NCBI GenBank assembly: GCA_951406725.2
Contig: OX597820.1
Coordinates: forward strand, 123,938,001-124,002,000
From: Octopus vulgaris
Taxonomy: Eukaryota
Reading direction: 5' to 3'
Length of the DNA: 64,000 bases
The position numbers and the translations under genes were made by a program. The stretch's first letter is position 1. Every line of letters starts with the position of its first letter. Positions 852 to 60,702 of the stretch are shown piece by piece. Under the pieces are notes generated by a model. The model searched no databases and was not told the origin of the DNA. It saw only the letters and a list, made by a program, of their open reading frames with translations.

Positions 852-914
852 TTAATTCAATTTACTTCGCAAAATTGGTCCTTCATCTAGTACAAATTAT
901 TATAGAAATATTTT

Positions 915-1870
915 CAGCCATTCAATTTGGGGGAAAACTTTGTTATGAATTATTTTTCCATATTTCTCCTGAAGGAGGTGTCATTCTTTGGACATTTGTA
1001 GAAAAGAAAAATCTCAAATGTTCCTTCTCCACATGTATCTAGCTGTTTATTCAGTGGAATCTTTCGTAGTTTCTCCTGTCGGACATGTCAGTGAATTCTG
1101 GCTCGTTGACATTAACAATTTCCATGTGGGGCAGGTTATGCAGTATATTACGTTCTGCTTCTTGCAGTTCATGTCTGCATTTACTTTGAATATGTGACCA
1201 CTCTTAAATTTCATTTGTTGCTCTCCTTCTTTATATTTGCAGGTGGGGGTTATTGCAGATCCCACATTTACCATCTCCGCACTCTTTTACAAAGAATTCG
1301 GTTTTAGTTTCTGATGAGAATTTCACTCTTGTTAGTTTTTTTCTTGAGGTTTTTGTCTTGTCTTTTACCTTTTTATGCAATATTTGTTTAAATATGTTTC
1401 CCATTTTGGGGATTTGTAGGACTATTGGTAGGTTTGAATGTATGATTTGAAACATGTCGGTAACTCCAGGGTTGTGTGTGTTTATGAAAGGGATGATGTT
1501 TTCTTTGTTTTTTTTTTTTTGTTTTAGAGTTCTGAGTTATGTGATGTCTAGTTTCATTGCTCTTGAGATTCCATTTTTTACTAGTTTGAGTGGGTATTTT
1601 TGTTGTAGTAGGAAGATTTTAAAGTCCATCTAGTCTTATTTGGCGTGTTTGTGAGTCGGTTACTATGCTGCATATGCATCTTGCTATACTATATGGGATG
1701 TTTCTTTTTATGTGGGATAGGTTGCAGGAGTAGAAATTTAAATATTGGTGTGTGTCGGGTTTTTCTTGTCGAGGATGTCTGTTGTGATGATGGAGTTGTG
1801 TATCTCGATGTTGATGTCTAGGAAGGGCAGTTCGTTGTGGCTGGTTTCTATCGTGAAGTTGATAGAAAGT
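915..1870 (-). mobile_element. Penelope-like retroelement remnant (RT thumb + GIY-YIG endonuclease), frameshifted
   Basis: Minus-strand fragments INFTIETSHNELPFLDI, QYLNFYSCNLSHIKRNIPYSIARCICSIV, ECGDGKCGIC, MNCKKQNVIYCITCPT and TCGEGTFEIFLFYKC, in PLE order. Confidence 0.9.
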
Positions 1871-16608: not shown

Positions 16609-16916
16609 ACAGCGTGGAAGGTGTTTGTAAGCCATTTAAGAAACACACAAAAGCCGTTCGATTCACTTCAACATTTAAGTTTAATTTGTCAAAATATTTT
16701 CGTCGCTAAAAAGATGCAGCACGGATTTTTGTCAGCGAACAGGTCGCGGATTTTAGCGACGAAAATATTTTGACAAATTAAACTTAAATGTTGGAGTGAA
16801 TCGAACGGCTTTTGTGTGTTTCTTAAATGGCTTACAAACACCTTCCACGCTGCAATTGTTTTCGTTCCAGCACACGATCTCAGATCAAATCACTTGCTAT
16901 GAGAGTACATCTCCGT
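16609..16916 (+). mobile_element. Young 308-bp fold-back retroelement with HHR and 14-bp TSD
   Basis: 102-bp arms 16610-16711 and 16751-16852 with one mismatch seen; TSD aatatattaaatag at 16595-16608 and 16917-16930. Confidence 0.9.
16728..16777 (+). ncRNA. Variant hammerhead ribozyme with G3-C8 core pair
   Basis: UUUGUCA GCGAACA G GUCGC GGAUUUUA GCGAC GAAA AUAU UU UGACAAA: 7-bp stem I, 5-bp stem II, palindromic AAUAUU stem III; position 4 is C. Confidence 0.7.
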
Positions 16917-17644
16917 AATATATTAAATAGTTTAGGCTGCAACAGTATTGCATAGCAATATTTTTCATGAACACAATTAATTTCTTACAATATGATATAG
17001 CAATCTAAAATGTTCATTGAGAGTTACGTGCTTTTGCTTTTGGTCATACTTTCGGCAAATCAATCATTTGCAATGCAGCTATTAATCTAGGAAAACCTGC
17101 TAGTAAAACACTTTAAGGGAAACTTCTGAAGTGTTTATGTTTTTAAAAGAAACGCAGACAATTAAACGGATCCTACGCTCTGGAAATTAAAAGTAACACT
17201 CTAATACATTTCAATCGTTGTCCTGTCACACGAAATAAACGATTGCCAATCTTTCCTTTGTTAGTGTGATGAAAAAAAAAACTAAGTCAGTCAGGCATTT
17301 TTATCACAACAGAAGATTGCTGCTGTCTATGTTATTATAGATGTGACCCAACGTTCAGAACTTAAATATAATCAAGAGAAATTATAATATTTGGAATTCT
17401 ATTGGAAAGTCTGAGCTACCACACGAACAAGTCGACTTCCATATCATAGCCTGCACACCCAGTTTATTACGCCTGTAACCGCTGTTAGTAATTTCTTTTT
17501 GTTTCATAATGCTATTCCTTAAGTATATAGAGTAGTACCTCGGTTTACGAACGCCACTGATTACGAATAAATCGTGATCTATACATAACTATCTCCCCAT
17601 CTCTCTCTCTCTCCATATATATATATATATAATTTTAATTTATC

Positions 17645-17759
17645 GCTTACAGAACCTAGGCTTCCCTAGAGGTCACCCCATCTAAGTACTCACTAGGCTT
17701 GACGTTGCTTAACTTCGTTGATCGAACGAGCACCGGGGCTTTCAACGTGATATGGTCGT
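17645..17759 (-). pseudogene. 5S rRNA-derived copy (divergent pseudogene or 5S-SINE head)
   Basis: Minus strand acgaccatatcacgttgaaagccccggtgctcgttcgatcaacgaagttaagcaacg...agtacttagatggggtgacc...tgtaagc; boxes A and C recognisable; first ~4 nt missing, no oligo-T terminator. Confidence 0.9.
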
Positions 17760-17897
17760 CTGACGAGATGCCGGAGCAGACTTCCCTCTCGACATCCAAA
17801 ACTCGGAGTGTTATTATGGCAACCGAATATCACATATTATATTACACATAAATTCCTCTACATAATATCAAGGTCTCATTCATTCTTTTGCTGCCAT
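17760..17897 (+). mobile_element. PLE-type 3' fragment starting at a decayed HHR core; same family as 50485-50650
   Basis: CUGACGA GAUGCCG..CGACAUC C AAAA CUCGGAG UG; the tail matches the reverse complement of 50500-50590. Confidence 0.6.
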
Positions 17898-46313: not shown

Positions 46314-46385
<72 letters not shown>

Positions 46386-46494
46386 TAACAGAAAAGAGTA
46401 ATTTCGATTGTCCCCACGTGTGGGGTTGTAATGTATATAAGAAAATAAGAAAGGAAAATACACACACTTACATGGTTTTAATATAATTTTTAAT

Positions 46495-46529
46495 ATATCG
46501 ACCGGATTCGCTATCGCTATTCATGATAT
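46495..46529 (-). ncRNA. Variant hammerhead with A3-U8 pair (A15.1 mutated)
   Basis: AUAUC AUGAAUA GC GAUA GC GAAU CCGG UC GAUAU; sense to and downstream of the GIY-YIG frame. Confidence 0.6.
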
Positions 46530-47213
46530 TTTGTTTAATTTATTTGAATATATATTTTTTCTTTAGAAGAAATTTGGTCCATGTTGTTTGAGATGAAATT
46601 CACGAGTGAATGTCTTCACAAGTAGACAAATAAAGGGAGGTAATTGGTTGTTATTATTGTTATTGCTCTGAGTAAGGGAGATAACTGTTCGGCTTTCGGT
46701 AATGGGTGAGGATTAAATATGTGTACAGAAAAGGGACAGGTTTTAAAAAAACCTGTTTAGTGGGGGATTTAAGTCCCGTGGTGTAATCGTGAATGGAATA
46801 TGTAAAACTATAAAAGTTGGTTATGCTTGCATATTAAGACGTGTTTTTTTTATTTTTCAATGAAAAAGTTTCTTTATTTAACCGTTCTATTTGAGAGATT
46901 GCGTCTTTGCACTGGTAGAAAGGTAAGTCTCTGAAATTTGGTTTGATGTTACCTGCACATTTTTCTATGCGTTCACTGAGAGGAATTCGTCTGTATTGCG
47001 GGAAACGGATTTGCTCCTTATGTCGAGTGATTCTTTTTCTCAAAATCAAACTCGTTTGTCCAACGTACTGATGACCGCAACAACAATAATAACAACCAAT
47101 TACCTCCCTTTATTTCTCTACTTGTTAAGTCATTTACTCGTAAATTTCATCACAAACAACATGGACCAAATTTCTTCTTAAGGAAAAATATATATTCAAC
47201 TAAATTAAACAAA

Positions 47214-47248
47214 ATACCATGAATAGCGATAGCGAAACCGGTCGATAT
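47214..47248 (+). ncRNA. Variant hammerhead with A3-U8 pair
   Basis: AUACC AUGAAUA GC GAUA GC GAAA CCGG UC GAUAU; one stem I mismatch. Confidence 0.65.
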
Positions 47249-47289
47249 ATTAAAACCATGTAAATGTGCGTATTTTCATTTATTAATTT

Positions 47290-47359
<70 letters not shown>

Positions 47360-50650: not shown

Positions 50651-50698
<48 letters not shown>

Positions 50699-50942
50699 CT
50701 TAATTAAGGGTAGAAATTGATATTTATCAATTAAGACCAGTGGTCTAGCATATTAAAAAAGAATCCGAAGATTTAAATATTTATATATACCAATTAAGGA
50801 CTGAACACGAAAAGTGGACAGTCAACATGCTAGATATAGACGTCAAATCGCCATTCACCACAAAAGATTATGTTCTCAGATCAAACTCAACACAAAACCA
50901 TAGCAATAAACAAGTGAAAAATATACGAAATAAAATAATTAC

Positions 50943-51007
50943 CCATGTACTAACTTAGTTTCAGCTGTTATTTTCCGCAAGGAAAACTGCAGCCATCATC
51001 AGCATGG
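50943..51007 (-). ncRNA. Type I hammerhead ribozyme, intact core
   Basis: CCAUG CUGAUGA U GGCUG..UUUUCC UUGC GGAAAA..CAGCU GAAA CUAA G UUAG UA|CAUGG. Confidence 0.85.
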
Positions 51008-51447
51008 TCCGTTATAAATGTAATTTGCTGGACTAGATGCAAACACGATACCGAAATATCGCGTGCATGGAGTTCAGCCTATTACATTTGAATATATCTT
51101 TCAAATGCCTTTACTTTGGCGTTGAAACCCGAGAAAACTAGCCTGCAGCTAATAATTAGCAGCAGTTAATTTATCGGTTAGAGAACATATTTATTTATAT
51201 AAAATTAATTAAGGGTAGAAATTGATATTTATCAATTAAGACCAGTGGTCTAGCATATTAAAAAAGAATCCGAAGATTAAAATATTTATATATACCAATT
51301 AAGACTGAACACGAAAAAGTGGACAGTCAACATGCTAGATATAGACGTCAAATCGCCATTCACCACAAAAGATTATGTTCTCAGATCAAACTCAACACAA
51401 AACCATAGCAATAAACAAGTGAAAAATATACGAAATAAAATAATTAC

Positions 51448-51512
51448 CCATGTACTAACTTAGTTTCAGCTGTTATTTTCCGCAAGGAAAACTGCAGCCA
51501 TCATCAGCATGG
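51448..51512 (-). ncRNA. Type I hammerhead ribozyme, second copy
   Basis: Same motif 505 nt from the first. Confidence 0.85.
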
Positions 51513-51678
51513 TCCGTTATAAATGTAATTTGCTGGACTAGATGCAAACACGATACCGAAATATCGCGTGCATGGAGTTCAGCCTATTACATTTGAATAT
51601 ATCTTTCAAATGCCTTTACTTTGGCGCGTTGAAACCCGAGAAAACGAGAAACCCGAGAAACCCGAGAAAACTAGCCTG

Positions 51679-60629: not shown

Positions 60630-60702
60630 CCGTTATTATTATATCGGCCCCGATTTCAGAGTTAATTCATAAGAATATTTTCCTCATCAGCGATAAATAC
60701 GG
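60630..60702 (-). ncRNA. Type I hammerhead ribozyme (slightly decayed)
   Basis: CCGUAUUUAUCG CUGAUGA GGA..UCU GAAA UCGG GG CCGA UA|UAAUAAUAACGG. Confidence 0.75.

Follow-up and report, generated by a model that had tools for sequence, protein, structure and literature searches.

In an abundant PLE family of Octopus vulgaris (family A), the normal core pair at positions 3 and 8 of the terminal hammerhead motif is A3-U8, and decayed copies of this family lie in the window, by which we mean the whole stretch of 64,000 nucleotides analysed here (contig OX597820.1, positions 123,938,001 to 124,002,000). Active hammerhead cores have C3-G8 as their hallmark pair. Across the genome, hammerhead motifs built on the same ACCGGU palindrome use all four Watson-Crick pairs at 3-8, and it is this four-state series, together with the repeated appearance of A3-U8, that carries most of the interest. 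We consider it probable that the motifs of the window are decayed PLE terminal-repeat hammerheads with A3-U8 as their family state, and that active elements cut themselves, slowly and as dimers.

Two defective hammerhead motifs at a truncated PLE end

The locus is composed of a truncated PLE end on the minus strand joined to an inverted pLTR piece on the plus strand, with microsatellite flanks. The main arm (46431..47081, minus) is a 5′-truncated PLE 3′ end holding the end of a GIY-YIG frame, the 3′ UTR/pLTR and a hammerhead; it is 86% identical by blastn to L070, a longer copy of family A, and 87-100% identical at the 40 genomic places scored. Only the endonuclease tip of the PLE ORF is present in the window itself, as a GIY-YIG C-terminal remnant (46846..47081, minus) that matches Pfam PF01541 with an E value of 0.0032, under the curated cut-off, and the L070 ORF at 74% by tblastn. 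The short inverted arm (47078..47290, plus, right end approximate), delimited from sequence and alignment, contains the pLTR part only and ends in a (TA)n run. Sequence comparison of the two sides gives an inverted repeat with 179-nt arms (46488-46666 and 47077-47255) that are 93% complementary. At the left end only, a one-sided extension or 'tail' (46383..46430, minus, boundaries approximate), which matches locus L033 and not L070, is followed by the microsatellite. A pLTR with its hammerhead, an inverted truncated copy, a one-sided tail and a microsatellite target are all present at the locus, and the same layout has been described for canonical PLEs (bioRxiv 2021.04.23.441226).

The earlier note on this DNA had reported two inverted motif copies, each with a different single defect, and we find both. 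They are minimal type I hammerhead motifs of 35 nt, at 46495..46529 on the minus strand and, inverted, at 47214..47248 on the plus strand. A 5-bp stem I encloses the core A3 U4 G5 A6 A7 U8 A9, a 2-bp stem II with its tetraloop, G12 A13 A14, the palindrome ACCGGU (15.1 to 16.1) that makes up stem III, and C17. In the minus copy A15.1 is changed to U (GAAU), which probably makes this copy inactive, and in the plus copy stem I has a mismatch at position 1.2. The minus copy lies in the sense orientation about 320 nt 3′ of the GIY-YIG remnant, in agreement with the placement first proposed for it. With its A3-U8 pair, the family A motif departs from the strict C3-G8 hammerhead consensus; placing C at position 3 instead would break U4 G5 A6, and this reading was rejected for that reason. 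The motif had also been called extremely small, a claim that we do not retain. Indeed, 35 nt is unexceptional, since Fig. S3 of PMC4209133 shows motifs just as small (about 35 nt in C. briggsae and 33 nt in C. remanei, by our own count), and a record size was rejected on these grounds.

Neither the window nor an intact family copy gave a hammerhead match in an Rfam scan, and a motif this short, in AT-rich DNA, might be taken for a chance match. We give this explanation a negligible probability and regard it as refuted. A hammerhead descriptor with one defect allowed finds two matches in the window and none in each of 200 dinucleotide shuffles, a test that only excludes chance, because the descriptor was built around this motif. 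When positions 7 and 8 are left free, the pattern has 382 exact matches in the genome against 0 in the control. Furthermore, the motif occupies a fixed position at the PLE end, and its stem I covaries as described below.

A3-U8 is the family state

The genome searched comprises 2.8 Gb in 227 contigs. A3 and U8 are found in all 32 copies (two of them the window's own) from 30 loci picked by DNA similarity. In a set of 29 family A copies chosen by protein search alone, A3 is present in 27 and U8 in 28, one copy being gapped, and U4 G5 A6 A9, G12 A13 A14, A15.1-U16.1 and H17 are all the majority state. The earlier note had inferred A3-U8 from the two window copies and proposed an alignment of genomic copies as a check; the consensus of this alignment is A3/U8, neither C3/G8 nor an unpaired combination, and the inferred pair proves to be the real state. 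When the loop was left open apart from one base restricted to non-A, and position 8 was free, 772 A3 matches were found in the genome; among the first 100 of the list, a count by eye gave U8 in 98. In the small-stem context 27 matches lack A3; all of them have U8 and resemble isolated single mutants. At a threshold of 3%, no difference at position 3 or 8 was seen in 969 contigs of run X16 or in 18 contigs of three runs labelled organism B, all of which had to be 80% alike to be compared.

Among 29 family A copies, similarity is 91-98% (mean 93.7%). The motif itself is conserved at 92.3% within the family and the flank at 92.2%, so that conservation gives no sign of selection at the level of the copies; this equality is what copies dead on arrival, or decaying after insertion, would show. 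The longer copy L070 encodes 635 aa in a single ORF, with RVT_1 (E 1e-6) followed by GIY-YIG (E 2e-6) in Pfam and a cysteine linker motif between reverse transcriptase and endonuclease. A cysteine linker ahead of GIY-YIG is a mark of Neptune and Nematis elements, not of Penelope/Poseidon (bioRxiv 2021.04.23.441226). Among the loci examined, no full-length family A copy with an upstream tandem pLTR was seen. Same-strand pairs about 5 kb apart were considered as full-length elements and rejected, as they are duplicated truncated ends. In another family, E, same-strand ORF matches lie about 4.4 kb apart.

All four Watson-Crick pairs at positions 3 and 8

Genome-wide, motifs sharing the ACCGGU palindrome gave 6522 matches for U3 with position 8 free (control 17), 1376 for A3-U8 (control 34), 145 for C3-G8 (control 18) and 115 exact matches for G3-C8 (control 0), counts that are only roughly comparable because the patterns differ slightly. 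Among the first 100 of the U3 matches, A8 is found in 95 and G8 in 5 (by eye), and U3-A8 is the commonest pair with this palindrome, outnumbering C3-G8. Most of the C3-G8 matches belong to a single 360-bp tandem family, near which no endonuclease match was seen; loci L101-L113 are tandem repeats of about 360 bp, retrozyme-like, whose C3-G8 hammerhead motifs lie in arrays with two inverted arms. For G3 with position 8 free there are 300 matches against 121 in the control, with C8 in about 42 of the first 100 by eye, and the non-C8 matches are apparently, for the most part, background or else single mutants derived from larger families. Across families, positions 3 and 8 change jointly and stay Watson-Crick, and no family with an unpaired combination occurs in the lists examined. 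The cleavage triplets, searched with position 17 left free, keep the NUH form at the family level.

Family B has 61-69% endonuclease identity to family A by tblastn and keeps A3-U8, while the two motifs differ at N7, in loop II and in stem I (one compensatory pair, A-U to G-C at 1.3-2.3, and two single changes). Identity between A and B is 92% in the core versus 66% in the UTR. The 45 nt that follow the motif on its 3′ side are themselves 87% alike, with 96% in the best 24-nt window, so the motif is not the sole conserved island between the two families. Families C, D and E, recovered by protein search with no motif filter, have U3-A8 at the matching site 3′ of the endonuclease. The young U3-A8 families, with near-identical copies, have open frames of 753-784 aa (753-764 aa in family C, which is young), and in families C and D (L067-L069, L075 and L078) there is one extra base in the GAAA stretch ahead of the palindrome. 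In clade F, A3-U8 (L176) and G3-C8 (L173-L175) occur in near-identical flanks.

Two further observations concern single groups of loci. At L123:1405-1620 (the same place as L145), the inverted copies of one locus are U3-A8 and A3-U8, so that A3-U8 could have arisen a third time here, the only place where this was seen. In addition, C17, which could mis-pair with G3, is present in 0 of 31 G3-C8 rows (L130-L197); most of these rows seem to form one related group, and the absence is only a lead.

The series can be followed within the window, where the earlier note had counted three of the four pairs, a count that our analysis bears out. Besides A3-U8, canonical C3-G8 type I motifs were found by scan on the minus strand at 51448..51512 (core at 51507) and 50943..51007 (core at 51002), in the first and second units of a 505-bp tandem (50697-51648) that is retrozyme-like and whose two motifs are identical. 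The third pair, G3-C8, is the family state of a motif at 16728..16777 (plus), recognized through a family search. This motif, which begins with a 7-bp stem I at 16728, belongs to a separate, short and young repeat family (94-99% at its best 40 places), in which the GUGAACA core with G3-C8 is present in 18 of 22 copies from 20 loci; in the window copy U4 is changed to C. Strict and loose hammerhead scans had missed it, and a reading of the site as a plain foldback was rejected once the family search had shown the G3-C8 motif. Two inverted overlapping ends of this repeat, for whose family a first look gave 1108 candidates, lie at 16610-16852 with the palindrome AAUAUU. The repeat often adjoins (TA)n and had no PLE protein match in 20 loci; it is likely a non-autonomous PLE-type element. 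Elsewhere in the window we noted a broken, more distant PLE RT-EN remnant at 905-1866 (minus; 25-51% to the query proteins), 3′ of which the scans found no hammerhead, a degenerate C3-G8 hammerhead-like core with weak stems at 60690 (minus), and a 5S rRNA-like copy at 17644-17763 (minus; 64.6 bits, over the Rfam gathering score).

Covariation and the endonuclease tree

Both sides of each of the five stem I pairs vary in an alignment of 26 motifs, in which 93% of the cells are paired; the covariation is 0.92, and slid controls reach 0.27 at most. The stem II pair 10.2-11.2 also changes on both sides, being unpaired in 6 of the 26 rows. As the rows were hand-picked from pattern matches, the 100% pairing at 3-8 and the invariant core in this alignment are circular. 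The 3-8 pair is likely to have been kept by selection, because related motifs in the genome use all four Watson-Crick pairs; self-cutting itself is only a prediction.

The endonuclease tree (LG+G4) was built from 25 of 54 rows, after long-branch, identical and redundant rows and most outgroup rows were dropped; the 54 comprise 7 outgroup proteins and what remained of 85 rows after thinning in family A, with no named PLE reference proteins among them. Three changes of the 3-8 state, in whichever direction, are needed on this tree, and a single A3-U8 clade is rejected (p-AU 2.8e-26). Families A and B fall in an unresolved group with U3-A8 families, and L179, one A3-U8 row, falls inside the G3-C8 clade (support 100/99). 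The tree thus suggests that A3-U8 lies in two separate clades, the second origin being carried by the single protein row L179; several further A3-U8 motifs share the clade F flanks.

These data bear on the idea that A3-U8 marks a dead ribozyme that drift has fixed while its lineage transposed without it, the pairing being coincidental. Such a history would account for our finding no young A3-U8 family with an intact full ORF (family A, with its mean of 93.7%, has a longest frame of 635 aa), the near-identical young families with long frames being U3-A8, and Naiad PLEs are known to have spread without detectable hammerheads (bioRxiv 2021.04.23.441226). Drift does not readily explain why unpaired families are missing from the lists examined, why all 27 non-A3 matches retain U8, why A3-U8 persists across families A and B through a compensatory change in stem I, or why it recurs in two clades of the tree. 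This explanation is already weakened, and we hold it to be improbable.

Folding and proposed mechanism

PLE hammerheads acting as dimers are a published model (PMC4209133; PMC6765202). For the intact family A motif, the predicted minimum-energy fold of the dimer is the exact double hammerhead, at -13.3 kcal/mol, with -8.3 kcal/mol predicted for the ACCGGU duplex, while the monomer is predicted to take the hammerhead fold only weakly (P = 0.025). Of 14 family representatives, only 2 have the exact double hammerhead as their minimum-energy dimer fold, and in the prediction it is lost from both window copies. In predicted read-through RNA of either direction, the sense motif pairs with the inverted arm. 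The window motifs are likely silent, and likely dead, since each is defective and the read-through hairpin would bury the sense copy.

In active elements, two motifs would pair through the ACCGGU palindrome, building stem III between them, and the paired motifs would be predicted to cut after GUC. The element's protein may help the cutting, as reported for the Anolis PLE (PMC11167929). Selection would act on the pairing at 3-8 and not on base identity, because the catalytic group of nucleotide 8 is its 2′-OH and not its base (PMC6155905, PMC8495972). Two studies weigh against this predicted cleavage of the A3-U8 motif. Pairwise mutagenesis of a type III hammerhead rescued activity only with the C3G/G8C swap, the other single and double changes made there remaining low (PMC9901934). 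The hammerhead of the Anolis PLE depends on protein, and insertion in vitro proceeds with hammerhead mutants (PMC11167929).

These same studies lend some weight to a non-cutting role, in which the hammerhead fold and its 3-8 pair are kept for protein binding, palindrome-driven RNA dimerisation or template positioning, A3-U8 having no useful cleavage rate. A3-U8 was not rescued in PMC9901934; PLE hammerheads are poor cleavers in vitro, and PMC4209133 leaves room for functions other than cutting; and besides the insertion by hammerhead mutants, RNA-seq showed no ends at the cut site in Anolis (PMC11167929). On the other hand, the 3-8 pair is seen only in the rearranged core of a tertiary-stabilised ribozyme and is absent from minimal crystal forms (PMC3884650), so that its repeated compensation is most simply explained by catalysis, and the cleavage triplets retain the NUH form at the family level. 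A non-cutting role is in our opinion unlikely, though likelier than drift. Slow self-cutting as a dimer remains the reading that we prefer for active elements. A broader proposal, that PLE hammerheads are no longer bound to C3-G8, that each of the four pairs spread with retroelement families in this one genome, that A3-U8 arose more than once and that purine-3/pyrimidine-8 motifs do work as ribozymes, probably with help from dimer formation or from the element's protein, is put forward tentatively, as we rate its chances at slightly below even.

Implications and comparison with known hammerheads

If this broader proposal is true, a sizeable class of hammerheads in genomes would have escaped searches built on CUGANGA or UUGANAA. 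Standard descriptors and Rfam have a blind spot for these cores. A natural four-pair series gives evolutionary support to the 3-8 pair, and the near-identical scaffolds of clade F, which differ jointly at 3 and 8, are ready-made matched constructs. With them one could ask by experiment if PLE hammerheads have to cut, and if weak cores are rescued by dimer formation or by the PLE protein.

Natural U3-A8 is already known: it was described in S. mansoni Cercyon (PMC4209133) and is the only variant named in the core-variant passages of Perreault et al. 2011 (PMC3088659). Natural A3-U8 and G3-C8 are apparently new. A full-text literature search found no published example of either, and none was found in Fig. 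S3 of PMC4209133 or in the accessible text of PMC3088659, PMC11014351, PMC3884650 and bioRxiv 10.64898/2026.07.22.740005; the alignment of Lunse, Weinberg and Breaker (RNA Biol 14:1499) could hold earlier ones.

The closest known system is the min-HHR of metazoan PLE pLTRs (PMC4209133; Cervera and De la Pena 2014), which shares with the octopus motif the type I topology, the pLTR site 3′ of the RT-EN, the palindromic reduced helix III, G10.1-C11.1 and the inverted pairs 100-700 bp apart. The octopus motif differs in its 2-bp stem II, in lacking an extra base after A9, and in its 3-8 states, as A3-U8 and G3-C8 are not seen in the rows of Fig. S3 (56 motifs according to the legend); also unlike this set, U3-A8 exceeds C3-G8 among the ACCGGU motifs of the octopus. 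The core variants of Perreault et al. show natural 3-8 covariation too, and a 2-bp stem II is called common there. PAc (Poseidon) of Anolis carolinensis likewise has a PLE pLTR hammerhead, with C3-G8 as its natural core, whereas the octopus element has a cysteine linker before GIY-YIG; in PAc, an engineered C3G/G8C swap partly restores cleavage (PMC11167929). Finally, the PLE hammerheads of Lunse, Weinberg and Breaker, as reported in PMC6765202, share the reduced palindromic stem III and cleave as dimers.
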